The notes: generated from the letters alone by a model not told the origin. 64,000 nt of DNA from a virus (IMGVR_UViG_3300022752_000032:39450-103449), one strand, 5' to 3'; positions 42,854 through 63,386 are shown, numbered from the stretch's first letter. Numbers and translations: made by a program.

Positions 42854-43320
42854 TCCTTTATTTTACATTGTTTTTAAATGTCGTACAGGAAGAGGGCATT
42901 GCTTATTGGACGAAAAGACAAAAATATGAAGGTTTCCATTATTTGCTTTTGGCCTGTGAGAAGGCTCTGCATGCATTTCGACATTTTCTAAATCGTTTCC
43001 GGAAAGTTTTTTAATGACACTAGGCTTTTTTACTTTTTTAGGTTTTAAGGCAAGAAATACTTTTATTTTTTATATCTATGTTTAGTATTGTTCTATAGGT
43101 ATAGGCTTGTAGTCAAGGTTGAGTCAAGGTGGATCAAGTTTGGTTAGCCTAGATATATCAGGGCTTAGATGTTTCACAACTAAAAAAATTGTTCTAATGT
43201 TGAATGCACCAAAGCCAATGTTTATGGTTTGACTGCTCTTGCCTTTAAGTCTAACTATCAACCTTTACTCTAGATATTCTTAGAATATTTGCCTGATTAA
43301 GACACGCCTATATTAGATAC

Positions 43321-43349
43321 TTGACAACTAAAAATATGTGTAATATCTT
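43321..43349 (+). promoter_or_regulatory. Sigma-A-like promoter
   Basis: TTGACA-17-TATCTT upstream of the only plus-strand gene; GACACGCC at 43301. Confidence 0.65.
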
Positions 43350-43396
43350 TATGCTTATAAGCACAAGGGGTGCTTAGGAATACGAAAGGGAAACAA

Positions 43397-43618
43397 ATGA
43401 CACAACATGGAGTGAGTATCACAACAGAAGGACACCACTACAACTTTGTAGTAGATACCACCGCACAGGTTAGAGAATTACTACTTGACACCACCGCACC
43501 CATCTCTGAGGTTATTGTTATGGAGGAAGGCTACGGCAAGGAAGCCCGTATGCTAAACGCTGAGGAAATCTTGGCTATTGTTCTCAATCACCCAAAAACA
43601 GCCTTATCTCTAGCCTAA
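43397..43618 (+). CDS. Hypothetical protein (only clear plus-strand gene)
   Basis: GAAAGGG RBS, own promoter and terminator. Confidence 0.7.
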   Translation: MTQHGVSITTEGHHYNFVVDTTAQVRELLLDTTAPISEVIVMEEGYGKEARMLNAEEILAIVLNHPKTALSLA

Positions 43619-43630
43619 AAAGGCTTGATA

Positions 43631-43658
43631 AAAGCCCCCCGCATAGGGGGGCTTTTTT
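43631..43658. terminator. Bidirectional intrinsic terminator
   Basis: AAAGCCCCCC-GCATA-GGGGGGCTTTTTT between convergent genes. Confidence 0.85.
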
Positions 43659-43662
43659 AATT

Positions 43663-44151
43663 CTAGTAGGCTATTGCTACCTTTGTATTAGCAAACAACT
43701 TCTTTAATGTGGCTTGGTTAATACCTTCACTACCGCAGAACTCTAATAATGCCTTATGGGTATTTTCCTTATACCAACCTCGTTTATCTATATCGGCATC
43801 GGCATATCCTTTTGATATCAATTGCTCTTGAACTAAAGCAACTGACCTAGAGTTTCTTTCTTTGTTGCTAAGAATTAACTTAGACAAGACAACAACTTCT
43901 CCATCTTGATAACTGGCTGCTGTTGTAAATTTTTTACTTTTTGCTTCTTCAGCCGCAGGTGTTTCAACTTCAGCCGCAGGCTCTGGAGTAGCAACAACTT
44001 CAACAACTGGCTCTGGCTCTGGAACTACAACTGGCTCTGGCTCTGGCTCTGGCTCTGGTGGAGTATAAACAACTTCAACAACCGCAGGGGCTTCAGCCTC
44101 GGCAGGTGCTTCCCAACTGAGTGGGGCTTCTTGATTTAATTCATCGCTCAC
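43663..44151 (-). CDS. Pro/Glu-rich protein with C-terminal peptidoglycan-binding-like domain
   Basis: PEPEPE repeats; SVALVQEQLISKGY...GWYKENTHKAL resembles PG_binding_1; GTG 44151 overlaps upstream TAG. Confidence 0.6.
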   Translation of the reverse strand: MSDELNQEAPLSWEAPAEAEAPAVVEVVYTPPEPEPEPEPVVVPEPEPVVEVVATPEPAAEVETPAAEEAKSKKFTTAASYQDGEVVVLSKLILSNKERNSRSVALVQEQLISKGYADADIDKRGWYKENTHKALLEFCGSEGINQATLKKLFANTKVAIAY

Positions 44152-44753
44152 TAGATTGCTCCTTCTGGGAACTTGGTAATCCATAAGTTATACATGGCTT
44201 GGTCGGTATCACCATTATAAGGGAACTTACCTACCCCCCATGATGACCAATCGCTTCCTTCGTTGCTCATGTAGTAAGCAATCTGGGCATTAACAACTGG
44301 GTCGAATAAGTCTTTATTAGAGTCAAGACCAAACTTATCACGCCGTGCTACGCCTAATCCACCAATCATGTTGATTTGGAATATGCCGTATGAGTTATCT
44401 CCTGTTTTAACATTGCCATTAAAGGCTAGGGGGCGTCCATTTGATTCTTTCTTCACAACTGCCCACGCTACTTTGAGTGCCTTACCTTCGAACCCAACTG
44501 CGCTTAACATCTTGACTAACTCTTCGTCAGAGAAAGAACCCTTCTGTTGAGAGAACTTCTTTAACTCTAGAGTCTTAATTTTTACTTTATGCTCTTCTAT
44601 TTCTTTGTCAATCTGGATTTTTACTGCATCTTTTGTTTGTATTGCTTGCTGTGCAACAGATGACTGAATATAAGTAGAGAAGATCGAAACAAACATCACC
44701 GCAATTAGTATGCTTGCTATTTGTTCGACAACTCTATTACTGGGTTTGTGCAT
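44151..44753 (-). CDS. Membrane-anchored lysozyme-like transglycosylase
   Basis: N-terminal TM; AWAVVKKESNG (catalytic E), SYGIFQIN, DPVVNA, WSSW. Confidence 0.85.
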   Translation of the reverse strand: MHKPSNRVVEQIASILIAVMFVSIFSTYIQSSVAQQAIQTKDAVKIQIDKEIEEHKVKIKTLELKKFSQQKGSFSDEELVKMLSAVGFEGKALKVAWAVVKKESNGRPLAFNGNVKTGDNSYGIFQINMIGGLGVARRDKFGLDSNKDLFDPVVNAQIAYYMSNEGSDWSSWGVGKFPYNGDTDQAMYNLWITKFPEGAI

Positions 44754-44921
44754 TGATTTTCCTTTGTTAGGGGACAGAGACAAGGTTGCTTAACTAGCCA
44801 ACCCGTGCCACCCGCTTTGGGGAGACAGGTATTACAACTACCTTTCTAATGCGTCCGTAAGTCGTTCGGTCTTTATAGGTATTAGATTACCATAAATAGT
44901 GCAGGAAAGTCAGGTTTTGGG

Positions 44922-45032
44922 TCAGCAACTCTCGCAAATGAGCCCATTTCGGTAGTCAATCTCCGCTACAGCCATAGATTTGCCACATTTCCAGCAAGAA
45001 ATGTAAATGATTTGCTTTTTGATCGTTTTCAT
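44922..45032 (-). CDS. 36-aa zinc-ribbon microprotein
   Basis: Manual ORF MKTIKKQIIYISCWKCG...ICESC with AAAGGGGG RBS and own promoter. Confidence 0.65.
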   Translation of the reverse strand: MKTIKKQIIYISCWKCGKSMAVAEIDYRNGLICESC

Positions 45033-45054
45033 CTAAATATCCCCCTTTAGGTCA

Positions 45055-45095
45055 AATAGTATCACCTTCCTGACAAATAGTCAAAGACACGCCGA
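45055..45095 (-). promoter_or_regulatory. Promoter with GTCAGGAAGG operator-like spacer
   Basis: TTGACT-17-TACTAT; spacer ATTTGTCAGGAAGGTGA. Confidence 0.65.
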
Positions 45096-45160
45096 TACAG
45101 CAAAAAACCCCCTAGTAGCAACCATTTCTAGGGGGCTCTTGTTAAACCTATCTTTTTGGC

Positions 45161-45313
45161 TTACTTCTCTCGACTAGCCAAAGTAGCAGAAGCAATTGAT
45201 AAAAGACCAAATGCCACTACATAAGTCATATCACCCTGCCATGCTGACAGTAGGGTCGCAAGTCCTAAGACTATTGTTCCTACGGCAGTCCATACTATGT
45301 TTAAGTTATTCAT
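45161..45313 (-). CDS. 50-aa two-TM membrane protein
   Basis: Manual ORF MNNLNIVWTAVGTIVLGL...; ATGA coupling. Confidence 0.65.
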   Translation of the reverse strand: MNNLNIVWTAVGTIVLGLATLLSAWQGDMTYVVAFGLLSIASATLASREK

Positions 45314-45510
45314 TTCTTGCCCTTCGTTTTGTTAGGTTTAGTCCGACCTCTCAAACGAGAAGAAGGATCTCTTAATTGCACTCCACCATTACGGATAGCC
45401 TTCCTAGCAGTTCTATAACAAACTCCTAGTTCAGCCGCAACACTATCGATAGCCAGACCAGATGTATACAGTTCTGCAGCCTGACTTTCTAGTTTTTTAC
45501 TTTTTGCCAT
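45310..45510 (-). CDS. Small HTH DNA-binding protein
   Basis: LYTSGLAIDSVAAELGVCYRTARKAI...GVQLR. Confidence 0.8.
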   Translation of the reverse strand: MAKSKKLESQAAELYTSGLAIDSVAAELGVCYRTARKAIRNGGVQLRDPSSRLRGRTKPNKTKGKK

Positions 45511-45673
45511 TAAAACCAGATCCCTGTTTTCTCTTAACTGCTCTGTAAATCAGGACTCCAAACAACACTACAAGTGCCGCGGGAGTATAAACAGAGATAT
45601 CAAAGAAGTTGCTAGATAAATCAATCCACTCGAACTGACATCTGAAGGTGTTGCACTCTGGAAATTGTTCCAT
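45497..45673 (-). CDS. 58-aa membrane protein
   Basis: Manual ORF MEQFPECNTFRC...ALVVLFGVLIY...GKK*; stop lies in the repeat core. Confidence 0.6.
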   Translation of the reverse strand: MEQFPECNTFRCQFEWIDLSSNFFDISVYTPAALVVLFGVLIYRAVKRKQGSGFNGKK

Positions 45674-45675
45674 TT

Positions 45676-45822
45676 TTACTTTTTACCCTTCTGTAGTTTC
45701 TCGGTTAGTTCTTGGTTCTCTCTAAATAAAGCACCATACTTTACGATAGAGAGCACCATTACAAAGCATGAACAAGCAAGCGCAATAATAATAGCGACCA
45801 TTGTTCCCGTGTCAAGTATCAT
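45676..45822 (-). CDS. 48-aa membrane protein
   Basis: Manual ORF MILDTGTMVAIIIAL...KGKK*; stop lies in a repeat variant. Confidence 0.6.
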   Translation of the reverse strand: MILDTGTMVAIIIALACSCFVMVLSIVKYGALFRENQELTEKLQKGKK

Positions 45823-45823
45823 A

Positions 45824-46111
45824 TTATTTCTCACTTCCTACTAGTTGTGGGGCTATATCTATTTCCTCTAGGTGAAAGATATACCCTTCTCTGTCTTTTT
45901 TCCTCGTGGCGCAGTAGATAAAAGTCCTACTTTCTTTGTTTTCCTCTAAGCAATAGAACGGTGCATGCTCTCCTGTTCTATCTTCATAAATCTTAAAATA
46001 GAACTTATTACTTTCTTTCCCTTTCCCTTTCCAAGACTCAAGAACTGTCCAGTTAGGAACTTCGTTCCATTTCTCAGTTAGTTTTTCAAGGTGATTATGC
46101 GTATCAGACAT
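45824..46111 (-). CDS. Hypothetical protein
   Basis: 95-aa coupled ORF. Confidence 0.65.
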   Translation of the reverse strand: MSDTHNHLEKLTEKWNEVPNWTVLESWKGKGKESNKFYFKIYEDRTGEHAPFYCLEENKESRTFIYCATRKKDREGYIFHLEEIDIAPQLVGSEK

Positions 46112-46323
46112 TAGTTTGCCTTCATTTCTGACTGCAATTTTTCTATTTCTTGTTTTAACAGTTCTATCTTTTCTTGAGTAGTCGGCTTTGGAGTGCCACC
46201 TAACTCAATCATTTTTGCTCGGTATATTTCATCATATTCAGCACGGTGGCGCTTGATTAGTTCTACCCTTGCAAAACTTTGTGCCGCTACACCCGGTTGA
46301 AATTTCTTTGGCTCTATATTCAC
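46111..46323 (-). CDS. Hypothetical helical protein
   Basis: 70-aa coupled ORF. Confidence 0.65.
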   Translation of the reverse strand: MNIEPKKFQPGVAAQSFARVELIKRHRAEYDEIYRAKMIELGGTPKPTTQEKIELLKQEIEKLQSEMKAN

Positions 46324-46475
46324 GGATAGAGCAAATCTAGGCAGAATTGGTTCATCTGCTCTGTCGGCACTTTACACATATCAGGTGTAGTTGCGTTGTT
46401 AGCCCAAACAATAAGACCAACTACCACAAGTGCTACTACCACTCTGCGTCTAATATACTTTGCCTTCGTTTTCAT
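46320..46475 (-). CDS. 51-aa membrane protein
   Basis: Manual ORF MKTKAKYIRRRVVVALVVVGLIVW...C...C; AAGGGG RBS. Confidence 0.65.
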   Translation of the reverse strand: MKTKAKYIRRRVVVALVVVGLIVWANNATTPDMCKVPTEQMNQFCLDLLYP

Positions 46476-46516
46476 TTAGGTCCCCTTAGTCCTATTGACA
46501 ATTTGCCAATAAGATA

Positions 46517-46567
46517 ATTATACAGACTTTCCTGACAAAATCAACCTTCCTGACTTTCGGCGTGTCG
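46517..46567 (-). promoter_or_regulatory. Promoter with two GTCAGGAA(A/G)G boxes and GACACGCC
   Basis: GACACGCCGAAAGTCAGGAAGG-TTGATT-TTGTCAGGAAAGTCTG-TATAAT. Confidence 0.65.
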
Positions 46568-46571
46568 CCTA

Positions 46572-47102: not shown

Positions 47103-47139
47103 TTAGTTCCCCCCTTTCTTTTTGTATTTTAGTAAATAA

Positions 47140-47316
47140 TTAGACTTTTGTCAAATTACTTTTTTTATCTAATTGTTTTTGTATTGCCTTGTTTATTATA
47201 TTGTTTAAGAAATCAGCAGTTGCTTGATACTCCTTAGCACTACGGCGTCTTTTGTGCCTCATGTGTTTAATACGACCATAAGTTCCTACTATCGCACTAT
47301 CAGGTAAGCCTCTCAT
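47140..47316 (-). CDS. Small basic protein
   Basis: Start reassigned to ATG 47316 behind AAAGGGGG. Confidence 0.6.
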   Translation of the reverse strand: MRGLPDSAIVGTYGRIKHMRHKRRRSAKEYQATADFLNNIINKAIQKQLDKKSNLTKV

Positions 47317-47347
47317 TGAGTCCCCCTTTCTCCTACCTTGTTTCGTA

Positions 47348-47376
47348 AGATTAGCACCTTCCTGACTTTTTGTCAA
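47348..47376 (-). promoter_or_regulatory. Promoter with GTCAGGAAGG spacer
   Basis: TTGACA-AAAAGTCAGGAAGGTGC-TAATCT. Confidence 0.7.
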
Positions 47377-47599
47377 GAAGGCAACAATTTCCATAGTTGA
47401 CCTTCAGAAAAAGCGCTGACTTCCTACGCTCACTTTGAGCCCGCTTTGAAATCTACAAACAACTTACGCAGCGGCAAATAGCCAGGCTGCTGTATTTTTT
47501 TACTTTTTGCTATGACCATGCTGTTGTCAGTCCAGATTTACAAACAACTTTTGGATCTGCATACCGCCTAGACGAAAAAAATGTAAAGGTTTTTACAAT

Positions 47600-47630: not shown

Positions 47631-47644
47631 AGTTTGATTTTATG

Positions 47645-47737
47645 TTAGGCAGATTCGCAGTCGTGTCCGTAGGCGTATTCCTCACGAGTCATTGTTTGTG
47701 AGCACTCTACGCACTTTATTGTTAGTAGATTTATCAT
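47645..47737 (-). CDS. 30-aa CxxC...HxC microprotein
   Basis: Manual ORF MINLLTIKCVECSQTMTREEYAYGHDCESA; TAATG coupling. Confidence 0.6.
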   Translation of the reverse strand: MINLLTIKCVECSQTMTREEYAYGHDCESA

Positions 47738-48045
47738 TAGTTCCCCTCGTATTCTTCATGTTCACCCTGTCCTATTAGGATTTCGAAGCCAGCGTTTGGA
47801 TCTATGTGGTTAGTAGTAACCGCTTGAATAAATCTAAGCCCGCAAGAATTTGAATACCAGTTTTGCAAGGTTGTTAGCATTTCTTCAGGTGTGCAATATG
47901 TGCTTCTAATTAGTGGGTCATACTCGTAGCCACGCATTGTTTCTACCTGCTCATCGTCCATTAGCAAGTAAATCTTGTGGCAACTATCCCAAGCGATAGC
48001 CTTAGCATCGCCAACTCTTTCTTTTACTAGGTCGAAGTTCGCCAT
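47737..48045 (-). CDS. Hypothetical protein
   Basis: IAWDSCHKIY...SCGLRFI; GAGGGGG RBS. Confidence 0.7.
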   Translation of the reverse strand: MANFDLVKERVGDAKAIAWDSCHKIYLLMDDEQVETMRGYEYDPLIRSTYCTPEEMLTTLQNWYSNSCGLRFIQAVTTNHIDPNAGFEILIGQGEHEEYEGN

Positions 48046-48182
48046 TTTATTTCCCCCTCTTTCAATACAGATACTATCATGTTAATAAGTTGTTGGCAAG
48101 TATGTTGCTCTGGTGTTTCTTCCTAGCAAAAAGTAAAAAAATATATCTTCAGGTGTCAGTTGAGTCAGATCGAAACAACTTT

Positions 48183-48755
48183 TTAAGATCCGAAGTGCTG
48201 TACCGCAATATTGATCGGCAGCCCTGTGCTTGGATCTAACTTGGCAGCGATAGTTATTGCTTGTCTAATAACATTCTTGGCTGTGCCTAAGGTTTTCTTT
48301 TTGCTGTCTAGGCTTGCCAGCATTGCTCCCATTGCGTATCCACCACCAGAACCTATGGCATATACGCCTGTTTCATCATGTGCCCAAGAATAGTCATCAC
48401 CAATTTCGTAGATAGTTCCATTAACCGCAACCATTACTTGAGAGTCATGCTCTCCATCTTTGCTGTAAGAGTTTTCCTCGAAGCAGTGTTTCATATCTTG
48501 GATAAAGACTGAGGAGATAAACTTGTCTAACTTTGCCCCGTAAAGGTTTGGATTTATGGCAGGTGGCTTAAAAACATGTGTAAGTATGTTAATGGCACGC
48601 ATATCTCCAGCCGCGCCAATTAAGTATGGACCGTTTCTATTTACTTTTCCATTGTCTTTAGGCAGCGTATAGATCTTGCTATTGTCTTCAGTCAGTCTTG
48701 CGTCATACCCTATGGCAGCCCAGTTCTCTCCCTGTATCGCTGCAATAGTTGTCAT
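48183..48755 (-). CDS. Ntn-hydrolase, proteasome-beta/HslV-like peptidase
   Basis: N-terminal MTTIAA nucleophile, LIGAAGD, YAIGSGGGYAMG. Confidence 0.85.
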   Translation of the reverse strand: MTTIAAIQGENWAAIGYDARLTEDNSKIYTLPKDNGKVNRNGPYLIGAAGDMRAINILTHVFKPPAINPNLYGAKLDKFISSVFIQDMKHCFEENSYSKDGEHDSQVMVAVNGTIYEIGDDYSWAHDETGVYAIGSGGGYAMGAMLASLDSKKKTLGTAKNVIRQAITIAAKLDPSTGLPINIAVQHFGS

Positions 48756-48787
48756 AGTCTTTTCCCCAATTGTTTTTTACTTTTTGC

Positions 48788-49033
48788 TTAGTCTAAAAAC
48801 CCGTCCCACAAGTCTTCTCTAAGTTTTTCATACTTATCTCCGTGATATCCATTGTTTCTTGCAGAAATATCTTCATCTCTAAGTAGAGAGTCTAGCGAAA
48901 GAACAGCAGTAAAGTCCCTCTCGTCAAACATGATAACAATTTTTGTATCTCCATCAGCGGGATCATCAACAAGGGCGGCAATAAAGGGAACGGCAGAACC
49001 ATTTGAGTGGTAATACTTATCTACAATCTCCAT
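48788..49033 (-). CDS. Hypothetical acidic protein
   Basis: 81-aa ORF. Confidence 0.6.
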   Translation of the reverse strand: MEIVDKYYHSNGSAVPFIAALVDDPADGDTKIVIMFDERDFTAVLSLDSLLRDEDISARNNGYHGDKYEKLREDLWDGFLD

Positions 49034-49183: not shown

Positions 49184-49227
49184 ATTAGTTTAGCCTGATT
49201 TTTTACTTTTTATTTGCTCAGGTGCTC

Positions 49228-49575
49228 TTAAATCTTATCAACTATGGATATAGGGACTACGGCATTGGCAGAGTAAATCTCCCCCTTCGAGTTTGTTCTA
49301 GCGAACCTACCTTTAGGTTTATCAAAAGTAATAGTGATTTTACTTCTCCTAATAGCAACCACAGTTCCCTCATCTCCTATCAAAGACTTAGTTCCGCAAC
49401 TACTATTTAGAACAATCCTATCTCCAACTACAAAATCCTTTATATCCGCATCTGCCCTCACGATACTTAATCGCTCCTCTATAAGTTTTTTAAGGGGAAC
49501 TAGTTGTTTGTCTAGTTCTCCTCTAGAAACGGCATTACAGGTTTCATCAAACAAGTCTATGGAAGTCTTAATCAT
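49228..49575 (-). CDS. Hypothetical SH3/KOW-like protein
   Basis: FVVGDRIV...GTVV pattern. Confidence 0.65.
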   Translation of the reverse strand: MIKTSIDLFDETCNAVSRGELDKQLVPLKKLIEERLSIVRADADIKDFVVGDRIVLNSSCGTKSLIGDEGTVVAIRRSKITITFDKPKGRFARTNSKGEIYSANAVVPISIVDKI

Positions 49576-49816
49576 CTTTTATTTTCATCTCCTCTTCTAA
49601 CATCACTTTTAAGATTTCTAATTTTATTATGTGATACCTGCTTCTCTTCTTGTCAAAGTTGTCCGCAATCAAAAATTCTGTGTGATACTTAATCATTTCA
49701 AGTATCCTTTCTTTCTTAGAAAGTTTTCCAAATCTGTCGTATTCGTCTTTAGCAGGTCTTGTTAATTGTGCCTTTGTTTGCGACCTTATTGATATGCTTT
49801 GTTTTGTTTCGCTCAT
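49568..49816 (-). CDS. Hypothetical protein
   Basis: Coupled ORF. Confidence 0.6.
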   Translation of the reverse strand: MSETKQSISIRSQTKAQLTRPAKDEYDRFGKLSKKERILEMIKYHTEFLIADNFDKKRSRYHIIKLEILKVMLEEEMKIKDD

Positions 49817-50034
49817 ACTTCTACCCCTTCTTCATCTACAACCCCAATACTATTAGCAACTGACGCTACATCAAAGCCGTAGTATTCGTTCATGAATACA
49901 GACGCAACACGAACCGCAAAGTCATTATCTACTTCGCCCTCATTTCTTAGTTTCTCATCTAAGACTACAGTAGTCATTAGCGTAAAAAAATCACCAACAA
50001 ACATTACTGTTCGGCTTGGAAGTATGTTATCCAT
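49813..50034 (-). CDS. Hypothetical protein
   Basis: Coupled ORF. Confidence 0.6.
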   Translation of the reverse strand: MDNILPSRTVMFVGDFFTLMTTVVLDEKLRNEGEVDNDFAVRVASVFMNEYYGFDVASVANSIGVVDEEGVEV

Positions 50035-50733: not shown

Positions 50734-51210
50734 CTATATATTCCATTGACCCATCATTTTTCTAGATAATTCAATTCCGTCGTTGTCTAATTCCCAACAG
50801 CCCCAACTAATTGGCTCTGCTTGAGAATCAAATGTTAAATACAACTCATAATTTAAGTTATCGCCCAACCATAAACAAGCCTTATCCATCCATTCAGAGG
50901 CTTCATCTTCGTATCTTGCGGGAAGAGTTTCATCAAATTGTCTAGCGGTTAAATCAATTATCACTCCGCTTAATCCATAACTGTATAAAAATCTTTCATT
51001 ACCCTCTTGACCTATATCGGTGTAGATAGCCCAATGCTCTCTTTTTCCATAATTTGCACCAGTAATTCTAATTAAACCTTGATTATGTTTTTTTGCATAA
51101 AGTTTTGATTGCCACAAGCATTGACCAAACGCTTTAACCGGGTCGGCTATGCCTCTCGACATCAATCTTGGTGTTTTATTTATTTTCATAAAGCAGATAC
51201 TAACAGACAT
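50734..51210 (-). CDS. Hypothetical protein (GxC...H...IIDLTARQF)
   Basis: C/H/D arrangement suggests a papain-like/transglutaminase-type triad; tentative. Confidence 0.55.
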   Translation of the reverse strand: MSVSICFMKINKTPRLMSRGIADPVKAFGQCLWQSKLYAKKHNQGLIRITGANYGKREHWAIYTDIGQEGNERFLYSYGLSGVIIDLTARQFDETLPARYEDEASEWMDKACLWLGDNLNYELYLTFDSQAEPISWGCWELDNDGIELSRKMMGQWNI

Positions 51211-51292
51211 GTCCTACTTTGGCAAGTTGTTCTTAGTCGTGTCGCACTGGGCATCTTGGTAAATTTTTACTTTTTGCTATTACCGCATAAAG

Positions 51293-52255: not shown

Positions 52256-52508
52256 TGTGTCTTTTTTCCTTTCGTTTTTGTAAGAGAGAGTTTCTCACTT
52301 ACATAACGCACAATACGCCCTTGTTCTAGGAAAGTCAAGTCTAAAAGTCAGGAAAGTCTAAAATATTTTTATGGACCTGGCAGCGGCAGCCAAGTGATTT
52401 TTTTACTTTTTGCTATGTTAGAGCCGCCAGGGCCGCAGACTTCCAAACAACTTTTACAAAAAAAAAGAAGATCCAGCGTTAGCCAGATCTTCTTTTGTGG
52501 GAAGTTTA

Positions 52509-52883: not shown

Positions 52884-52972
52884 TTTTCCCCTTTTCTTAC
52901 TGTTGATCTAATAATATCAGTTTAAAATAAAAAGTCAAGCAGCAACAACCACCTGATTTTTACTTTTTGCTT

Positions 52973-53110
52973 TTACGCTGAAACCAATACTCGTGGGTAG
53001 TGTGGTTTTTCTACTCCTTTGTCCCAGAAGCAAACCGCACCGCCCATACTGTCTATCCACAAATCAAAATCAGTTGTAATCTCCCAACCGCAACTTTGGC
53101 AAGTTATCAT
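52973..53110 (-). CDS. 45-aa CxxC...C...H microprotein
   Basis: Manual ORF MITCQSCGWEI...AVC...HYP; TAATG coupling. Confidence 0.6.
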   Translation of the reverse strand: MITCQSCGWEITTDFDLWIDSMGGAVCFWDKGVEKPHYPRVLVSA

Positions 53111-53334
53111 TACTCGTTCTCCAATCCGGCTGTCATACTCTCCCAGCACTTTGGGTGAGTTCCCGAAATAATTTGTTCTCTTAAAGATTTGTCTAGTTCA
53201 GGAAAAGCCTCTTGTATTGCCGCACCTCTTTTGTATTTCATATATCCTTCAGAAAAAACTTCTACAAACCCACCAGCACTACACATTAAACATGTTGGTG
53301 TCCGCATTAAAACTGTTGTATTACTTGTCATCAT
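53110..53334 (-). CDS. Small Zn-binding protein
   Basis: CLMC...IQEAFP...REQIISGTHPKCW. Confidence 0.7.
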   Translation of the reverse strand: MMTSNTTVLMRTPTCLMCSAGGFVEVFSEGYMKYKRGAAIQEAFPELDKSLREQIISGTHPKCWESMTAGLENE

Positions 53335-53345: not shown

Positions 53346-53879
53346 TTAAAAGTGAAAGTCTACTGGAACAAGATATTGCTTTTCAGGATTTTTGTCAAGC
53401 CTATCCTTAAAGTATTGCAAGTTAGCCGTATGCTCTTGTAAGTCATATACGCCAGTATCAGAACACCAATCATTATTTAGTATCTTGGAAATTCTTTGTA
53501 GTCGCCACATATTCATACCACTATCGTCAAATCTTTGTTCGTAAGGATTATATTCAGATATTGATTTCTCTACATCAAACCCAATTCCTTTTTTCATTTC
53601 GTCCCAAAGGTTTTTGGCTTCAGTTATTCGGTAAGAAACAAACTCTTTAATAATGTCATCTGCTAAAACTTTATTCTCGGCGTAGCAAAGAACATCTCGG
53701 TTCTCTTCCCAGCCTAGAAACAATCCAGACCAGCGTCCAGCCAAACCCTCACCTAAACCTCCGTGCCAATCAGACCAAGCAGGGTAAGGAGTTTCCGCAT
53801 GGGTAATCGTGCCTCTTACATAACTCAGAGCCTCCTCTGCGCTATCAGCCTCTACTAACATAATCTGACATGTATGCAT
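53346..53879 (-). CDS. Hypothetical protein
   Basis: MH...WSDW...GRWSG...VDFHF pattern. Confidence 0.75.
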   Translation of the reverse strand: MHTCQIMLVEADSAEEALSYVRGTITHAETPYPAWSDWHGGLGEGLAGRWSGLFLGWEENRDVLCYAENKVLADDIIKEFVSYRITEAKNLWDEMKKGIGFDVEKSISEYNPYEQRFDDSGMNMWRLQRISKILNNDWCSDTGVYDLQEHTANLQYFKDRLDKNPEKQYLVPVDFHF

Positions 53880-53928
53880 TTTTTACTTTTTCCCCTTTCG
53901 CTTTAAATATATTATTTCATAATAGTCT

Positions 53929-54381
53929 TTATTTGTCAAGCATGTCAGGCATGCCAAGAAGTGTCTCCGCATTGAAATACTCCGCATAGACATACTCTTT
54001 TGCCATATCAATAGCCTCGTTCAACATGTGACTTGGCATATCAAAGTGTTCTCCGTAGCAGTAAAGGTCAAACCAAGAGTTCATATCCATAACTAGGCTC
54101 TCGTCCTCAGTTGCTTTATGAAACTTAGTGTCCGTATCAAAGCCGCCTAATATTAAATCCGCACCGCCCGTGTAATACTGATCTGTGCTTCGGTTATATA
54201 TTTTTGTATCTCCGTCGCAATAAATATCAACGGCAAAGCCTTCATATAAAACTGTGGCTATATGACCTTCACCAGCATAGAAACAAGCATCAAATCTTGT
54301 GATGCCATAAGTTTTAAGTCCAGCCGAAGGCAACATGTGAGATGCGTATTTAATAACAAACTTGCTTTCATCTCTTTCCAT
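53929..54381 (-). CDS. Hypothetical protein
   Basis: Probable start ATG 54381 directly after a repeat core. Confidence 0.6.
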   Translation of the reverse strand: MERDESKFVIKYASHMLPSAGLKTYGITRFDACFYAGEGHIATVLYEGFAVDIYCDGDTKIYNRSTDQYYTGGADLILGGFDTDTKFHKATEDESLVMDMNSWFDLYCYGEHFDMPSHMLNEAIDMAKEYVYAEYFNAETLLGMPDMLDK

Positions 54382-54471
54382 ATTTTTTACTTTTTGCTTT
54401 CGCCGCTGCCGCAAATAACTAGCAGAGTGAAACCCCAAAGGGGTGGAAGGAGTTCCACTCGTTCTTTTTGG

Positions 54472-58341: not shown

Positions 58342-58383
58342 TTTATTTCCCCTTTTCTTTAGGCTTGATAGAACTTTATCAAA

Positions 58384-59305: not shown

Positions 59306-59394
59306 ATTTCCCCCTTATTATTTTGTAGTCCGTGTTCGCAAGTAGCGGACTAACCCACCCTCACAAATCGCTCATATAAGCGGTGCGAAACGAC

Positions 59395-59423
59395 ATCATA
59401 TAAGAACCGCATCTTTTTGTCAA
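59395..59423 (-). promoter_or_regulatory. Sigma-A-like promoter
   Basis: TTGACA-17-TATGAT. Confidence 0.75.
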
Positions 59424-59726
59424 ACACCCTTGCCACTCGTTCAGATGACAAACGCTGGAATAGCACCACATCACAATAACTTCGGCATCTGCTCAGTTAA
59501 ATTAGCAGCGGCAATTTTTTACTTTTTGCTTGCCCGCTGAGCCTGTTTTTTACTTTTTGCTAAGGAGTCTTCCAACTTGCGGAGTAGTGTATGAACAACT
59601 TTTATAGATGCATTTTACATTTTTTTTGTCTAGGAAGAATGGGGGGTCTTTTTGAAAATACAAAAGGCGTGCCTTTGCCGCATTTCTATACGGGCTTAAA
59701 AGACACGCCTAAGTAAGTTGAGAGTA

Positions 59727-60113
59727 TTACACAGTTGCTCTAGTTTTCCAACCCTCGCCAGTTATTTTTATATTGAATACCGCTTCAAAGGCGGTAGCAA
59801 CAAAGTCCGTTATATCTACCCACTTATCCGTTTCGCCCCAGAGCGAGCCAGCATTAGGGATATTAGGTAGATCCGCATCCGTTGTGTAATCACCAAGCAC
59901 TACAACCCTGTCGCCAGCCCAGCGACCTGAGATGCCTGTTTCGGGTAAATCTCCCCCGCCTCGGTTTGGAGAAGTCATGGTTAAAATATACTGAGCATCT
60001 GCTAGTGAAGCAGTTCCCCCGATATGTTCCCATTGCTTTAATCCCATGCCGAGCCCGTGTGGTGTTACAACTTCTTTTTTGTCTAGGTTTACTAGAACAT
60101 GATATTGACCCAT
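59727..60113 (-). CDS. Hypothetical protein
   Basis: MGQY...NLDKKE...GRWAGDRVVVLGDY. Confidence 0.75.
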   Translation of the reverse strand: MGQYHVLVNLDKKEVVTPHGLGMGLKQWEHIGGTASLADAQYILTMTSPNRGGGDLPETGISGRWAGDRVVVLGDYTTDADLPNIPNAGSLWGETDKWVDITDFVATAFEAVFNIKITGEGWKTRATV

Positions 60114-60117
60114 TTTA

Positions 60118-60273
60118 TTATTGCCCCTTTTCTGTCGTAGAAACTACATCAAAGTTTGAATATATTTCATCTATAGAGTTCTCTAAAGAATCTATAAATA
60201 GGCTTAGTTGATTGTCATCTAACTTAGCGACCATGTCTTGTGTAATGGTATGTTGCCAAATTGCTTGACTCAT
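60118..60273 (-). CDS. 51-aa hypothetical protein
   Basis: Manual ORF MSQAIWQHTIT...; GAGGAG RBS. Confidence 0.6.
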   Translation of the reverse strand: MSQAIWQHTITQDMVAKLDDNQLSLFIDSLENSIDEIYSNFDVVSTTEKGQ

Positions 60274-60276
60274 TAC

Positions 60277-60408
60277 TTAATCTCCTCTAATTTCAATTGC
60301 TTCAATATAGGCTTCTAACTCCTCATTAAACATTTGATCACAATTAAAGCAAGTTCTAGCCTTTGTAGATAATCGATAACCGCATTCACAAATTACTGTT
60401 TGACCCAT
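60277..60408 (-). CDS. 43-aa CxC...CxxC microprotein
   Basis: Manual ORF MGQTVICECG...TCFNC; flanked by direct repeats. Confidence 0.6.
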   Translation of the reverse strand: MGQTVICECGYRLSTKARTCFNCDQMFNEELEAYIEAIEIRGD

Positions 60409-60584
60409 TACTTAATCTCCTCTAGTGAGATTTGTAAGTTTGATGTTGAGTATTCCTCATCATCTCCCTCACTTGTAATAGGTTCTTCAATTTGTGGTGC
60501 TACATGCCCTATTAAATTATCTTGCTCGTCAGATGAAAGTTCTTTATCTGTCTCGAAAGAAATCAGCATTTGATACTTAGCCAT
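60408..60584 (-). CDS. 58-aa acidic protein
   Basis: Manual ORF MAKYQMLISFETDKEL...; AAAGGGG RBS. Confidence 0.6.
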   Translation of the reverse strand: MAKYQMLISFETDKELSSDEQDNLIGHVAPQIEEPITSEGDDEEYSTSNLQISLEEIK

Positions 60585-60623
60585 TTGGCTACCCCTTTCT
60601 AGTTATCTTTATCTTAACAGTTT

Positions 60624-61547
60624 TTAACTGTTTGTCAAGTTAAACTGCTTAGGATAAAAGAGTGTCGTAGTTTTGTAAGCATTGACTAGAGAAGCATTAA
60701 CGCTAGCCAAAACCGCAGTTAGGTTTTCACCCGCAGATAATCTTTTAGTTAGGTAAGTAGCAAAAGCCACAGTTGAGTTAGAAGTTCCAAAAGAAACCTT
60801 TTTATTATCTGAAAGATCAGATGTTGTGTATTTACCATTTACAAAATAATCAACATCAGAGTTGTAGTTAGAAATAGCCATAATTGGATACACCCAACCT
60901 GACACCTCTTTCATGGCATACCTATCCTCAGTTGCGCCCACCGCAATCGCTTGTGGGATACAAGCAGGGTAGTCAATCTTGGTAGAGCCACCATTACCAA
61001 CCGCAATAGCAACAGGTATTCCTGAAGCCATTAAGTTAGTAATTTGTGTTTGTAGGTTTCCAACTATCGGACACTCAGTTGATTTGTAAGAGTTACCTAG
61101 CGAAATAGAAACCGCACCAACATTTAGTCGTGCCTTATTTGCTTCCACATAATCTAACGCCCAAGAAATTGCTTTGGCTGTGTAAGGATTAGGAACGCCC
61201 TTAGCAGTCATACCAGCAACTCGGATAGAAACAATTTTTACATTTGGATCAACCGCAACCGCAACTGAAGCCATTTGAGTTCCATGACTAAATGAACCAG
61301 CAGTTGTCATAGCAGGAGTAATCTTTGATGCACCAGCACCAATCATTTGTGAGAAGCCATTTGGACATCTATTAAACTCAACGAAGCATGCCTCATCTAT
61401 GACCGCACTTTTAGCCCAAGCCAAATCTGTATTTATGCCTGAGTCAATAATTACTAAAGTTTTTTCTCCAACTGCACTCGCAGTTTGAGTTGGAAGTAGA
61501 GTTGCTGATATCGCAACTACTATAAGTATAATTTTATTTTTTGTCAT
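60624..61547 (-). CDS. Secreted subtilisin-like (S8) serine protease
   Basis: Signal peptide ending ASA; IIDSG, HGTQM, AVGN, GTS triad motifs. Confidence 0.9.
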   Translation of the reverse strand: MTKNKIILIVVAISATLLPTQTASAVGEKTLVIIDSGINTDLAWAKSAVIDEACFVEFNRCPNGFSQMIGAGASKITPAMTTAGSFSHGTQMASVAVAVDPNVKIVSIRVAGMTAKGVPNPYTAKAISWALDYVEANKARLNVGAVSISLGNSYKSTECPIVGNLQTQITNLMASGIPVAIAVGNGGSTKIDYPACIPQAIAVGATEDRYAMKEVSGWVYPIMAISNYNSDVDYFVNGKYTTSDLSDNKKVSFGTSNSTVAFATYLTKRLSAGENLTAVLASVNASLVNAYKTTTLFYPKQFNLTNS

Positions 61548-61723
61548 TTGCTTAATACCAATCTTTGTCCTAGTCCTAATCCCAGCCCCTTGCCAAGACT
61601 TTCAAAACAAGACTGACACATATTTGCCCACGCTGAGCCAAGTATTGTCTGTCCATCATAATTTGCAACCTGTCCGCAAAAATCGCAGTTAGGTAAATTA
61701 GCCACCCTTACTTCCTTAGACAT
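61544..61723 (-). CDS. 59-aa Zn-finger protein
   Basis: Manual ORF ...CDFC...YDG...WANMCQSC...GLGLGLGQ. Confidence 0.7.
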   Translation of the reverse strand: MSKEVRVANLPNCDFCGQVANYDGQTILGSAWANMCQSCFESLGKGLGLGLGQRLVLSK

Positions 61724-62033
61724 TTAGTTCCCTTGCGCTATCTGCCATTGCTTTGGCATCAACTAGATTATTCCAGTCTTCATCTCTAATGTCAAGTAAG
61801 AATTCCATTGGTTCAGAACTTCCACCAACACTAGCCAGCACAGACGCTCTGTGATGAATGATGTCTTTGTTCGTATGACCTTTGTGGTCTTGGACAACCA
61901 TTTCTAAAACATGGATGCCATTAGTACTGAAGTTGTGCGACTTCTCGGGATACTGATTGAAGTTGAGCATTTTTGCGGTATCGATCAGCCTTTTTAGAGT
62001 TTTCGAGTTTACTGCTTTGTATTCGTTTGTCAT
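61716..62033 (-). CDS. Hypothetical protein, possibly leaderless mRNA
   Basis: TTGACA-18-TATAAT (62040-62069) ends 6 nt before the ATG. Confidence 0.7.
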   Translation of the reverse strand: MTNEYKAVNSKTLKRLIDTAKMLNFNQYPEKSHNFSTNGIHVLEMVVQDHKGHTNKDIIHHRASVLASVGGSSEPMEFLLDIRDEDWNNLVDAKAMADSARELNV

Positions 62034-62209
62034 AGAAATATTATAATCACACGATCAAACGTTTGTCAAATCAATCTTCGATACGGCATTTCTCGTGTTC
62101 ATTCATACAACAGACACAATAGTTCTCATGACCATCATGGGTGCAACATCTATCAGGATCTGCTTTATCTAAACGATTATTTATCCAGCGATTTAATGTG
62201 TCAGCGATT

Positions 62210-62623
62210 CTATGATCCGACTCGGACGGGATTAATAGTTGTTTCTGTATCTGATTCACTTTGTACGCTATGTACCCAAGAAGTAGCATCCGCTTTAATC
62301 CCCGCTTTCTCTGCTCTGTCAATTGATCTCTTAAACTTAACAATAACCATCCGTTCGTCTTCTGTCAAGCCACCCCACACACCGAAGTTCTCGGGCACCG
62401 CTAATGCGTGCTCTAAGCACTCCGTCTTGATAGGGCATGCCGTACATATTTTTTTAGCGGCACTCTCCCGTGCCTGCTTCTCAACACCGCGAAGCATGTC
62501 ATCATTAAAGAACACCGTCGCGTCCACGCCGTTACTTTTGCACAGCGCTTTATCTTGCCAGGACCAGTTACGGGCAGACGGCACTAATGCATCGTTCGGA
62601 TTGAAGACGGGTTCCATAGGCAT
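62210..62623 (-). CDS. whiB: WhiB-family transcriptional regulator
   Basis: WQDKALC...FF...AKKICTACPIKTECLEHAL...GVWGGLTEDER (4 Cys and GVWGG). Confidence 0.93.
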   Translation of the reverse strand: MPMEPVFNPNDALVPSARNWSWQDKALCKSNGVDATVFFNDDMLRGVEKQARESAAKKICTACPIKTECLEHALAVPENFGVWGGLTEDERMVIVKFKRSIDRAEKAGIKADATSWVHSVQSESDTETTINPVRVGS

Positions 62624-63062
62624 GCCGTTATGGTAGCAATGGCTCAAGCCGTTTGTCAACAACCGCTGTACCAAGCCGCTTGCCGATTAAATAACATCTA
62701 AACAATTTTCTGTTTTTAACTTTTGGCAGTGCTGCCAAAAGCTACCCTACCAGTACTGTCAAGCCGTCGAGCCCGTTGAGCTAACCAGGTAGAGATGTAA
62801 ACAACTTCTGTAGATTGTCCTCACAGCTGCTGTACCAGGCCGCTTTTTTACTTTTTGCTATCCAGAGCTCCGCCGAGCTAGAAAGATGAGAACAATTTCT
62901 TGATGTGCGGCTTCTATTTAATTTTCTGAGCGTGGAGCTCCAGGAAGAACCCGCATTTGCACACTACGAACAACTTTAGTTTCTACAGCCGCAGATCTCC
63001 AGACCGTAGCATCTATACACAGTTAGAATTAAGGCTGTACGAATCCGTTGAATCCCTGACGC

Positions 63063-63173
63063 TTAGACATCCTCTTCCGTTTGCGTTTTACATCTATGAG
63101 CACCGTCTAACTCTGCACTCTCGTACGACTCCTTACAGAAGTAGCACACCGTCACTATCCGTTCCATGTCCAC
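63063..63173 (-). CDS. 36-aa CxxC...HxC microprotein
   Basis: Manual ORF ...MERIVTVCYFCKESYESAELDGAHRCK; AGGAGG RBS. Confidence 0.6.
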   Translation of the reverse strand: MDMERIVTVCYFCKESYESAELDGAHRCKTQTEEDV

Positions 63174-63203
63174 AGCGTTACCTCCTATACCCCATGCCGC
63201 TTT

Positions 63204-63386
63204 TTACTTTTTGCTCTCAATGGCCAAGCCGCTTGTCAACATCTTGATATTGTTTAGAAGTTCGACAGCTTCGTTAGCTCGAGCCGTTACCCGTATGTGT
63301 TCAGCACGAGTTGAGCACAGAACTATGTCCTCCTCAAGCCGCTTTGCCAGGCGAGCCGCTAGTTCTTCTAAGTTGTTTATACTCAT
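63204..63386 (-). CDS. Hypothetical protein
   Basis: 60 aa, ATGA coupling; stop lies in the repeat core. Confidence 0.65.
   Translation of the reverse strand: MSINNLEELAARLAKRLEEDIVLCSTRAEHIRVTARANEAVELLNNIKMLTSGLAIESKK

Follow-up and report, generated by a model that had tools for sequence, protein, structure and literature searches.

A clade-specific repeated word at the boundaries of early transcription units in uncultured freshwater actinobacterial phages

Two kinds of short regulatory words in actinobacteriophages are close analogues of the element described here, namely the SAS/ESAS elements of cluster K and the stoperators of cluster A, so the remark in the first-pass annotation of this DNA that no element of such geometry had been described was too strong. 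The SAS is an asymmetric 13-bp word present in 11–19 copies, nearly all in one orientation and in the non-structural half of the genome, which adjoins start codons, at times includes the stop codon of the gene upstream, and stays conserved from one subcluster to another before unrelated genes; about half of the copies have a second conserved element a few tens of bp off. All of these features have counterparts here. However, the SAS contains an AGGAG Shine-Dalgarno (SD) core and lies 3–9 bp before nearly every associated start, whereas the word reported here is A-rich and lacks an SD; only about a quarter of its copies reach a start, and many stand behind terminators. The ESAS is a pair of imperfect inverted repeats of 15–17 bp around SigA-like −35 and −10 elements upstream of the SAS, whereas the partner box found here has neither dyad symmetry nor a proper −10. 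The sequences of SAS and ESAS are unrelated to those of our core and box.

The stoperators of cluster A mycobacteriophages (L5 gp71 type) are described, in the part of the source used here, as asymmetric 13-mers that occur more than 20 times and occupy short intergenic spaces, their orientation following transcription (PMC9283540). In the same part, they are spread over the whole genomes of temperate phages, with one copy overlapping the early promoter, and a protein specific to the lineage reads them on the DNA; this immunity repressor is monomeric, has two domains and causes an orientation-dependent elongation block (PMC9283540). The sites found here are likewise asymmetric, numerous, located in short intergenic spaces and oriented with transcription, but they are confined to the early region instead of being genome-wide and avoid promoter-proximal DNA, and their reader is putative, with no repressor homologue found.

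The Actinomycetia phage DSL-LC01 (OQ999401) shares its phage family and gene order with the DNA analysed here. Its early region contains 23 cassettes on one strand, built on AAAG(A/T)TGTTATAAT and sited after GC-rich hairpins, for which we found no printed description. Their two-word design, a promoter word and a ribosome-binding-site word 17–35 nt apart, resembles our core and box, and the promoter word has AAAG(A/T)TGTT in common with the box. In contrast, the promoter word of DSL-LC01 is plainly recognisable as an extended −10 promoter (TGnTATAAT), and the other word as a ribosome-binding site a few nt before the ATG, whereas neither word here fits a standard signal and canonical −35/−10 promoters stand separately beside them. 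Phage-specific words among host-type early promoters are also known from the middle promoters of T4, which combine a MotA box with an AsiA-remodelled sigma-70, and T4-type "promoter-early stem-loop" cassettes, consisting of a terminator stem-loop and a promoter, flank small early genes and can mediate shuffling. Unlike these, the word here has no host-type −10 and its promoter activity is putative; we know of no MotA or AsiA relatives in these phages.

The window, a stretch of 64,000 nt analysed as a whole, carries all of its genes on the minus strand, and the element therefore has to be read as the reverse complement of the form originally annotated, its sense-strand core being GCAAAAAGTAAAAA. 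The 13 exact copies of this 14-mer reported before, 12 on one strand and one inverted at 48126, were all recovered, ranging from 43.9 to 63.2 kb, versus 0.01 expected (mean of 100 shuffles, none of which reached 13). Allowing up to two mismatches yielded 24 matches versus 2.93 expected, 20 of them within 43027–63214 and the remaining four outside, each with two mismatches. No further exact copy was found in the whole 103,449-bp contig, in agreement with the earlier statement that none was seen in the replication and virion half.

Conservation in related phages, suggested earlier as a check, was observed in four IMG/VR phages, which carry the 12-mer AAAAAGTAAAAA in 16–24 copies per genome in their early regions, co-oriented with the genes, while it is absent from 17 lineages with a portal at most 77% identical. 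Several of these 17 lineages have other repeated words. The copies span 19–28 kb in the five related contigs of 62–125 kb, with a single one-mismatch match outside. This 12-mer is the invariant part of the core, whereas positions 1–2 vary; the full form is (t)A-GC-AAAAAGTAAAAA-(a), and its full-length version (tA-GC...) is best kept in copies away from starts. The 12-mer is identical in 95 copies of the five early regions, the flanks of which differ, and in 105 distinct flank contexts from 55 IMG/VR stretches on 29 contigs. Judged from the sequences compared, this invariance amid differing flanks is selection on the letters, and copies are kept at orthologous positions across diverged genomes. 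The comparison supports a cis element that is under selection, is conserved in a clade of uncultured freshwater actinobacterial phages and belongs to their early-gene region. Of the 95 copies, 82 point in the gene sense and 13 are antisense, five of the latter being followed by an antisense ORF of 45 aa or more that starts no more than 170 nt downstream. All counts out of 91 refer to those copies whose flanks are less than 70% alike.

Following the window in the gene sense, all copies lie on the minus strand except one. The exact core at 63201..63214 provides with its internal TAA the stop codon of ORF 63204–63386 and is followed by an SD and a GTG; the partner proposed for it at 63247 (ATATTGTT) has two mismatches and is weak. 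Core 62845..62858 is located within the 529 nt of intergenic DNA that precede the WhiB gene, between the variant box AAATTGTT at 62891–62898 (32 nt upstream) and a box at 62800–62807 (37 nt downstream), and a third box of this region, AAGTTGTT, stands on the minus strand at 62969..62976. The next two cores form a tandem pair, 31 nt start to start: 59547..59560 has a box at 59594–59601, 33 nt upstream, with a terminator-like hairpin beyond it, and 59516..59529 has AAGTTATT 33 nt downstream and a canonical promoter (59423–59395) about 90 nt downstream. Core 54384..54397 ends 2 nt before ATG 54381 (150-aa reading, ORF 53929–54438), and its counterpart in relative G001 is fused to the ATG. The variant GGAAAAAGTAAAAA at 53880..53893 lies between the SD and the ATG of ORF 53346–53879, with a canonical promoter upstream (53939–53911), while the orthologues of this ORF in G002 and G003 show an ordinary SD-spacer-ATG in its place. 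Core 52957..52970 is situated 2 nt past the stop of ORF 52973–53149 and 18 nt upstream of the −35 of a canonical promoter (52938–52911). At 52400..52413, the order in the gene sense is terminator (52496–52463), box (52446–52453), 32 nt, core and canonical promoter (52338–52310). Core 51264..51277 follows a terminator stem by 21 nt and precedes an inverted box at 51224–51231 and the next ORF start at 51210, with no canonical promoter (9 of 12 or better) between the core and this start.

Further downstream, the variant ATAAAAAGTAAAAA at 49200..49213 is found shortly past the stop of ORF 49228–49575, and core 48774..48787 directly past the stop of ORF 48788–49033 and 19 nt before the ATG of an HslV-like gene (48183–48755), an arrangement present in all four relatives compared. 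The sole inverted core, on the plus strand at 48126..48139, indeed has a box on each side (48087–48094 and 48174–48181), the whole box-core-box unit being reversed. The clearest such unit surrounds core 47497..47510, where a terminator (47630–47605) is followed by a box (47543–47550), 32 nt, the core, 31 nt, a second box (47458–47465) and ORF 47140–47394. The last A of the variant GTAAAAAGTAAAAA at 45673..45686 is the A of the ATG of ORF 45497–45673. Two cores lie in coding sequence, as had been noted of some copies: 45494..45507 directly follows the ATG of a 66-aa helix-turn-helix-like gene (45310–45510) and is read as A K S K K, a position also seen in three of four relatives compared, and 43931..43944 lies inside ORF 43663–44184, preceded at 48 nt by a box at 44000 and followed at 32 nt by one at 43898, core and boxes all being kept in the orthologues. 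The variant TAAAAAAGTAAAAA at 43027..43040 falls within the 809-nt gap upstream of ORF 42353–42853.

Across the clade, the copies cluster at the boundaries of transcription units. A sense terminator stem ends within 60 nt upstream of 14 of the 91 cores (about 2 expected), in ten cases at 12–25 nt, but a stem lies downstream of only one; the random values are 2.4% upstream and 2.2% downstream. Seen from the 51 sense terminators, a core follows within 150 nt after 21, a canonical promoter after only four. Among 13 cores close to a terminator, seven are not followed by a canonical promoter (9 of 12 or better) on the way to the next ORF, so something there must start transcription, unless these terminators leak. 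Canonical sigma-70-type promoters exist separately, and cores tend to be upstream and are rarely downstream of them: such a promoter occurs within 300 nt upstream of 5/91 cores (P = 4e-4) and downstream of 32/91 (P = 5e-4), against a baseline of 19%. Cores lie on or adjoin an upstream stop codon in 25/91 cases; 25/91 abut a start codon and two more directly follow one, and in 18/91 the core shares its last A with the ATG of an ORF of 45 aa or more. Identity with the SAS was rejected: the short asymmetric word, its prevailing orientation and its early-region location agree, but copies next to a start are a minority, instead of nearly all of them standing 3–9 bp before one, and AGGAG is missing from the word. 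The core was also considered as the T-tract of antisense intrinsic terminators, with a GC-rich stem-loop ending 0–2 nt before the T-run, but none of 11 plus-strand terminator-like sites at 43.5–63.4 kb abuts a core.

The partner box is of the type AAGTTGTT, or AAGTTGTT(tgTAgtT) in extended form. In 9 of the 13 window cores, a box with at most one mismatch stands 31–33 nt away on either side and in either orientation, compared to a mean of 0.10 cores and a maximum of two when the sequence between the cores was shuffled (n = 1000). The preference for a nearly fixed distance noted before is thus stronger than in shuffled controls of the window, but the gap widens to 25–40 nt across the relatives, again on either side and in either orientation. 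The GC-side gaps of 32 or 33 nt at 47510, 52413, 59560 and 62858 (the last to AAATTGTT) were reproduced, as were the T-tract-side partners at 43898, 47465 and 59475. A general box-core-box site of about 94 bp did not hold up; full units occur at only three window copies (47497, 48126 and 62845), and most cores have one box or none. Identity with the ESAS was rejected as well, since the box arms show 2.11 complementary positions of 7 versus 2.15 for permuted partners, only 22/169 boxes have a TAnnnT just past them, and boxes occur on either side of the core. The spacers are unrelated between copies, but the GCNGC noticed in them was confirmed, GCAGC and GCTGC each occurring 13 times within 32 nt downstream of cores versus about one expected, and 11 of the 18 GCWGC sites at 43–64 kb of the window lying within 30 nt of a core.

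Most likely, the word is a clade-specific signal controlling where early transcription units start or stop. As to how, we tentatively prefer a promoter-type restart site read by the host polymerase together with a putative phage factor, with the boxes as regulator sites. The core would head transcription units of the early-gene region as a clade-specific cis signal, and host RNA polymerase, redirected by the putative factor, would use it as a restart site with the message starting at, or just past, the last A of the word. Fused to an ATG, the word would give a leaderless or near-leaderless mRNA, with readthrough mRNA from upstream still served by the displaced SD; after a terminator, it would restart transcription for the next gene or genes. 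The boxes about 30 bp off may be sites of a second, orientation-indifferent DNA-binding regulator tuning the cores.

For the promoter we counted the selection on the letters, the direction, the limit to the early region, the terminator position, the spacing to promoters, the ATG register and the A/T composition; the A/T word lies between flanks of 0.54 GC versus about 0.44, which fits the expectation for a melting site. Three of the sister lineages examined have repeated early-region words which are plainly parts of promoters, in DSL-LC01 as described above and in the others CCTGATATAAT or TTGACAAAGTGCAGGAA, and this family habit was counted in the same direction. On the other side, neither Pfam nor PHROGs detected an RNA polymerase or sigma factor gene in the contig, and the word has no sigma-70 (SigA) features, with no conserved −35, no TAnnnT in the right register, an internal TAAAAA without the final T of a −10, and upstream conservation only at −1/−2. 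The assembled RNA contigs showed no transcript 5' end, and some of them bridge cores. Where an orthologous gene start lacks the word, an ordinary SD spacer rather than a canonical promoter takes its place. An SD-like purine run is retained just upstream of 18 of the 25 start-fused copies versus 14 of the 66 others (P = 1e-5), and GG occupies positions 1–2 in nine of 25 versus two of 66; no SD lies within the word, only upstream of it or overlapping positions 1–2. These copies are therefore certainly inside translated mRNA, and a promoter would need a dual-use argument there. A promoter after the start codon of the helix-turn-helix gene would not serve that gene either.

The main rival, somewhat less probable, is a stoperator-like operator, an asymmetric DNA site of a putative clade-specific repressor, for which the helix-turn-helix-like proteins of 45310–45510 and 42353–42853 are candidates. 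Bound in one orientation at junctions and past leaky terminators, it would halt the elongating host polymerase and shut off the early region, be it at a late stage of infection or in a carrier state; the boxes would be a second operator type or the site of a second domain. A letter-perfect, co-oriented asymmetric 12–14-mer that lies in narrow gaps between genes and over stop and start codons, at the copy number found here, matches the L5-type sites as far as described in the part cited (PMC9283540), and the maximal overlaps of the word squeezed between SD and ATG (GG at positions 1–2, A shared with the ATG) are expected of a site fitted into a junction without destroying translation. The tandem cores, which lie 31–33 nt apart, would suit an operator, the site at the 5' end of the helix-turn-helix gene would allow autoregulation, and a core 12–25 nt behind the stem of a terminator might keep the polymerase on the U-tract. 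However, the cores are depleted behind canonical promoters, the best location for a roadblock, and many stand behind terminators, where little transcription should arrive. Known stoperators also span whole genomes, nothing related to a cluster A repressor turned up, and the candidate protein P0004 had no match in a sequence search of solved structures and, in a poor single-sequence model (pLDDT 58.8), no significant fold match.

It is rather unlikely that the core acts in the mRNA as a translational operator, enhancer or endonuclease site by early-gene starts, read by a phage or host RNA-binding factor, as has been proposed for the start-associated sequences of cluster K. The sense-strand bias, the copies abutting or directly following starts, the SD kept upstream of them and the replacement of the ordinary SD-ATG spacer would all fit, and the word is unpaired in the minimum-free-energy folds of all seven window units. 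However, these units show no conserved RNA structure (z-scores −0.4, −2.6, 0.0, 0.9, 0.1, 0.3 and 0.3), nor does a closing stem enclose the core (P = 0.36). Of the 91 copies, 66 are away from starts, where the full-length form is best kept, and many follow a terminator but precede the next promoter, a stretch in which little RNA is expected. Boxes in non-coding DNA face both ways (24 sense, 27 antisense), which argues that at least the boxes act on DNA.

The idea of the first-pass annotation, a phage protein wrapping box-core-box arrays for genome entry or segregation, or identical sequences aiding cassette shuffling, appears very improbable. It could draw on the preferred distance, seen on either side of the core and for either box orientation (of the 78 boxes found within 120 nt of a core, 48 stand 25–40 nt off), on a recurrence of boxes at 77–89 nt in two arrays, and on the window-unique genes 50734–51210 and 53346–53879, which begin at cores. 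Of the 24 synteny-block ends in the closest relative, six are no more than 25 nt from a core, a count uncorrected for both features being intergenic. Over four relatives, the same confounded comparison gives 9/92 block ends within 40 nt versus 5.8 at random (P = 0.13), leaving a weak hint of the suggested breakpoint link. Only three window copies have boxes on both sides, and wrapping leaves the strongest regularities, which that annotation had missed, unexplained: the co-orientation with genes, the register with terminators, stops and starts, and the place upstream of canonical promoters argue for control of transcription units instead of a bend or wrap as such. A miniature mobile element or a chance repeat is scarcely credible: inverted AAGTTGTT/AACAACTT do stand on either side of the inverted copy at 48126, but shared internal sequence and terminal inverted repeats are both missing, box dyad symmetry does not exceed column composition, copies keep orthologous positions, and the shuffles exclude chance.

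The word joins the known actinophage regulatory words, SAS/ESAS and stoperators, as a new variant. Beyond the restart promoter, there is a small chance that word and boxes together make up a switch of a new type, placed at the boundaries of transcription units, read by a putative clade-specific protein and causing either restart with leaderless messages or a stop. Its reader might be one of the WhiB-like or small helix-turn-helix proteins of the phage acting on the host polymerase at a 12-bp word that has no −35 or proper −10 and is placed 12–25 bp behind terminators or fused to starts. If so, this would be a class of promoter or roadblock without precedent in Actinobacteria and would provide a tractable model for the unsolved SAS/ESAS problem.

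The 103,449-bp IMG/VR virus record, of which the window forms the final 64 kb, has an estimated completeness of 78%, and its nearest named relative is Actinomycetia phage DSL-LC01, which shares its gene order and has a 71% identical capsid protein. Every sizeable ORF of the window is encoded on the minus strand. In gene direction, about 47 small genes extend from 64.0 to 43 kb, most of them without annotation; those matched by Pfam or PHROG include genes for a WhiB-like protein, an S8 peptidase, an AAA ATPase, an HslV-like protease subunit and a phosphatase. Beyond this early-type region come the genes for the portal, the giant proteins, the capsid, the tail, DNA polymerase and helicase. No match to the region was obtained in the phage collection by megablast, an Rfam scan of 42–64 kb returned only three matches, all sub-threshold, and no tRNA genes were found.

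Several features of the contig were recorded alongside. The phage carries three WhiB-like genes (contig 35087–35611, contig 36368–36646 and window 62210–62674), of which the 174-aa one has, in addition to the WhiB domain, a lysine-rich tail and a zinc-ribbon-like CxxC...CxxC segment; the three might modify host sigma A. Flanked by the portal and capsid genes, a 2087-aa ORF (window 31719–37982, minus strand) had been labelled a WYL/HTH fragment, which we could not reproduce: it gave no PHROG hit, a sub-threshold Pfam match to PI3_PI4_kinase and Atlas look-alikes below 0.9. With these PHROG and Pfam results, it was rejected as a candidate polymerase or binding protein. In DSL-LC01, a 3289-aa ORF occupies its place. 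Outside the window, contig 1–30 kb contains four collagen-repeat genes in one block (453 to 1169 aa), along with many genes with Gly_rich_2 domains and six tandem paralogues of about 175 aa; the contig's commonest k-mers (GCACCAGT and similar) derive from this stretch. Throughout the contig, short palindromes are strongly under-represented relative to the Markov expectation (AGCT 0.24, CCGG 0.23, GGCC 0.39, CCWGG 0.42–0.47, CGCG 0.49), which looks like restriction avoidance.

Because all genes lie on the minus strand, the repeated 14-mer of the early region has to be read as its reverse complement. In gene sense, this core is GCAAAAAGTAAAAA, usually with tA before and a after it. The first-pass annotation had reported 13 exact copies confined to the early region, and both statements held: 0.01 copies are expected, 12 of the 13 are in gene sense, and none occurs in the contig's other 39 kb. 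With up to two mismatches, we found 24 matches (2.9 expected), 20 of them inside 43.0–63.2 kb. Scanning the collection for the box, 28–36 nt and the core retrieved 55 stretches on 29 viral contigs; throughout their 105 distinct core contexts, the 14-mer is unchanged while the flanks differ. Conservation in related phages was likewise evident, as five long relatives contain 17–25 copies each (at most one mismatch), which span only 19–28 kb apart from one stray one-mismatch hit and show strand ratios of 16:1, 18:2, 20:5, 15:4 and 17:2. The letters of the core vary only at positions 1–2 (GC 64, GG 11, CC 8, others 12; n = 95). Of 571 portal relatives, those with 7.9 kb or more of DNA upstream were compared: the invariant 12-mer is present in all six loci with a portal at least 80% identical and in none of the 17 with a portal 69–77% identical. 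DSL-LC01 has no core copy, and of the 44 papers matched by a literature search for the 12-mer string, the ten listed have nothing to do with phages. A degenerate core at 43027 and a plus-strand ORF (43370–43618) lie in an 809-nt stretch devoid of minus-strand ORFs (42854–43662), which is situated between a two-way terminator (43630–43656) and a helix-turn-helix-like gene (42353–42853) and may separate the early module from the packaging module.

Of the partner box, AAGTTGTT in gene sense, the contig has 17 sense-orientation copies, and the early 21 kb accounts for 12 of these. The box had been described as lying at a nearly fixed distance from the core, and in the window the distance is indeed tight: a box with at most one mismatch is present at 31–33 nt from nine of the 13 cores, compared with a mean of 0.10 and a maximum of two cores in 1000 shuffles. 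Across the related phages, the near-fixed distance did not hold. Five early regions together contain 165 copies of AGTTGTT (79 sense, 86 antisense; consensus AAGTTGTTtgTAgtT). About half of the exact box 8-mers are coding, and there a box can arise from E-V-V or N-N-F codons; the non-coding ones are divided into 24 sense and 27 antisense copies. Boxes near cores lie upstream or downstream, in direct or inverted orientation, and 48 of the 78 within 120 nt of a core are found 25–40 nt from its edge, none of this group being closer than 25 nt. Therefore, the pairing of core and box is real, as a preferred distance and not as a rigid bipartite site. The box shares AAAG(A/T)TGTT with the promoter word of DSL-LC01 and has no usable -10 element. 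Two roles for it were discarded, one as a dyad operator, since it is not a dyad, and one as the -35 element of a core promoter, for which the spacing is unsuited as judged by eye. The GCNGC motif noticed in the spacers holds in the form GCWGC, which is concentrated beside cores; GCWGC is not depleted genome-wide (0.94–0.98), yet it is rare in the early region except at these places. A terminator-core subfamily (window 51240–51263 and relatives) carries a spacer motif, ACCAAGAT(C/G)(G/C)C(T/C)AGTG, that starts some 3 nt past the core and has an inverted box behind it; these modules precede different genes in different genomes.

The placement of the core was analyzed on 91 copies with flanks less than 70% alike from the window and four relatives, after dropping four near-duplicates, using consensus scans for terminators and promoters and mechanical ORF calls. 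In 18 of the 91, the last A of the core doubles as the A of an ATG that begins an ORF of at least 45 aa; the start lies 1–4 nt beyond the core in five further copies, and a start codon directly precedes it in two. An SD-like purine run just upstream of or overlapping positions 1–2 accompanies 18 of the 25 start-adjacent copies and 14 of the other 66 (P = 1e-5; this and the following P values overstate independence, as the 91 copies include orthologous sites), and GG at positions 1–2 occurs in 9/25 versus 2/66. At orthologous gene starts, the core alternates with an ordinary short SD-ATG spacer. In 25/91 copies (random 4.9%), an ORF of at least 50 codons has its stop codon starting at -12 to +8 of the core, nine of these stops being TAA inside the core and seven TAG formed by tA plus G. 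Sense terminator stems end within 60 nt upstream in 14/91, ten of them at 12–25 nt (random 2.4%); a terminator follows within 60 nt in only one copy (random 2.2%). Counted from the 51 sense terminators, a core comes next within 150 nt in 21 cases and a canonical promoter in four.

Canonical promoters, taken as sigma-70-type sites that match at 10 or more of 12 positions, are numerous and point in the gene direction (94 sense vs. 20 antisense), and only two of 92 have a terminator within 60 nt upstream. They lie within 300 nt downstream of a core in 32/91 cases (baseline 19%, P = 5e-4) and within 300 nt upstream in 5/91 (baseline 19%, P = 4e-4), and seven of 13 terminator-proximal cores have none before the next ORF. 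A perfect TTGACA-18-TATAAT promoter (window 62040–62069) is located 6 nt before the ATG of ORF 61716–62033, which is a canonical leaderless gene. Besides this one, 43.5–63.4 kb contains at least ten more strong sigma-70-type promoters, and its 18 best-scoring promoter-like sites are all on the gene strand. The core itself was rejected as an antisense terminator tail by a terminator scan of 43.5–63.4 kb, and as a leaderless SigA promoter by the absence of TAnnnT at -12 to -7.

From these patterns in the sequence, we tentatively favor the core as a promoter-type signal, which would restart transcription after terminators. Candidates for the protein that reads the core or the box are the clade-conserved early proteins, namely those of ORFs 45310–45510, 42353–42853, 49813–50034, 47737–48045 and 48788–49033 and the three WhiB-like proteins. 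Such a function explains the position of cores behind terminators, their complementarity with canonical promoters and the genes otherwise lacking a promoter, and it matches the lineage-specific promoter words that the sister lineages carry. It also explains the exact ATG register, because leaderless messages are common in Actinobacteria and a canonical example is present at 62069–62033. Its weaknesses are that Pfam and PHROG scans found no recognisable polymerase or sigma factor, that the core lacks the standard hexamers, that an SD is retained at ATG-fused copies, which needs a dual-use argument, and that a core copy is sited after a start codon.

By analogy with the stoperators of cluster A mycobacteriophages, the core could instead be a DNA operator or roadblock, which we consider less likely. 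This would account for the perfect asymmetric word and its orientation, for the way it is fitted into junctions so that it overlaps SD and ATG as far as possible, for the tandem copies and for the core at a helix-turn-helix gene's 5' end. However, it leaves the avoidance of the first 300 nt behind promoters unaccounted for, as well as the gathering behind terminators, unless a bound protein strengthened termination there. P0004, the protein considered as repressor candidate, had no sequence match among solved structures, and a poor single-sequence model of it gave no significant fold match.

More doubtful is a word acting at the RNA level, which would suit the start-adjacent quarter of the copies but neither the majority behind terminators and ahead of promoters nor boxes in both orientations. 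RNA structure was not supported by folds of seven whole units (z-scores -0.37, -2.60, 0.04, 0.91, 0.12, 0.31 and 0.31), by spacer folds (mean z -0.5 and -0.7) or by a closing stem around the core (11 copies with at least 5 bp vs. 9.6 in permutations, P = 0.36). In one metatranscriptome run, 95% of the sampled words of 45–55 kb were present, and several contigs from the four runs bridge cores, these being assembled contigs that do not show starts, ends or strand. As a single anecdote, the end of a low-depth contig (59856 to 59546, gene sense) falls 1 nt beyond the core at 59547, which is the first of a tandem pair, and 17 nt short of the second. An architectural or recombination element, as the first-pass annotation had envisaged, is improbable, since synteny breakpoints compared with cores gave no significance overall, and a mobile element or chance is scarcely credible; part of the probability falls to none of these readings.

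The closest described systems are the start-associated words of cluster K (SAS/ESAS) and the cluster A stoperators. The overall pattern of SAS and ESAS resembles that of core and box; however, the SAS includes the SD and is found at almost all associated starts, and the ESAS consists of an inverted repeat that encloses a SigA-like promoter (PMC3203893, PMC11373665). As of 2025, the function of these words had yet to be tested (PMC12699233). Stoperators share the asymmetry and the dependence on orientation, but they occur genome-wide and are read by a known two-domain repressor (PMC9283540). Because the core shares the descriptive features of both systems and lacks one defining feature of each, it is a member of neither family.

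Several of the lineages with 69–77% identical portals and DSL-LC01 carry other repeated words, three of which are visibly promoter parts (AAAG(A/T)TGTTATAAT, CCTGATATAAT and TTGACAAAGTGCAGGAA), and DSL-LC01 additionally has a ribosome-binding-site word. At 23.5–43.4 kb, DSL-LC01 (OQ999401) contains 23 near-identical early cassettes on one strand, each consisting of a GC-rich hairpin, (GA)TTCT-AAAG(A/T)TGT-TATA(A/G)T, a 17–35-nt A/C-rich leader, ACGACGAAAGGACAA and ATG, the second element representing an extended -10 promoter flanked by GATTCT/AGAATC. We know of no description of these cassettes; the literature search turned up one paper that names the phage. A same-gene match was rejected by eye, as the cassette-preceded orthologues of DSL-LC01 differ from the core-preceded genes here. 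Of two further sister lineages, one (L131) has a tandem array of units of about 10 nt (CTACACGCCA-like) at 8.0–8.3 kb, and the other (L098) carries, at 5.1–7.4 kb on the opposite strand, six nearly identical promoter cassettes whose -35/-10 spacer contains a conserved word.

Freshwater Actinobacteria are infected by abundant phages, and because these hosts are largely uncultured, nothing is known to us about gene timing in the phages. The clade described here offers a sharply defined regulatory word with a partner box at about 20 boundaries per genome, kept across at least 29 metagenomic contigs, with different words in the sister lineages. In practice, the word flags the early region and the gene orientation in fragmentary contigs of this clade. 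Three questions thus become testable with oligonucleotides and a few small proteins: what factor of the phage redirects host transcription, whether actinophage lytic growth involves non-canonical promoters or stoperator-like roadblocks, and what role the long-unexplained SAS/ESAS-type words of actinophages play.
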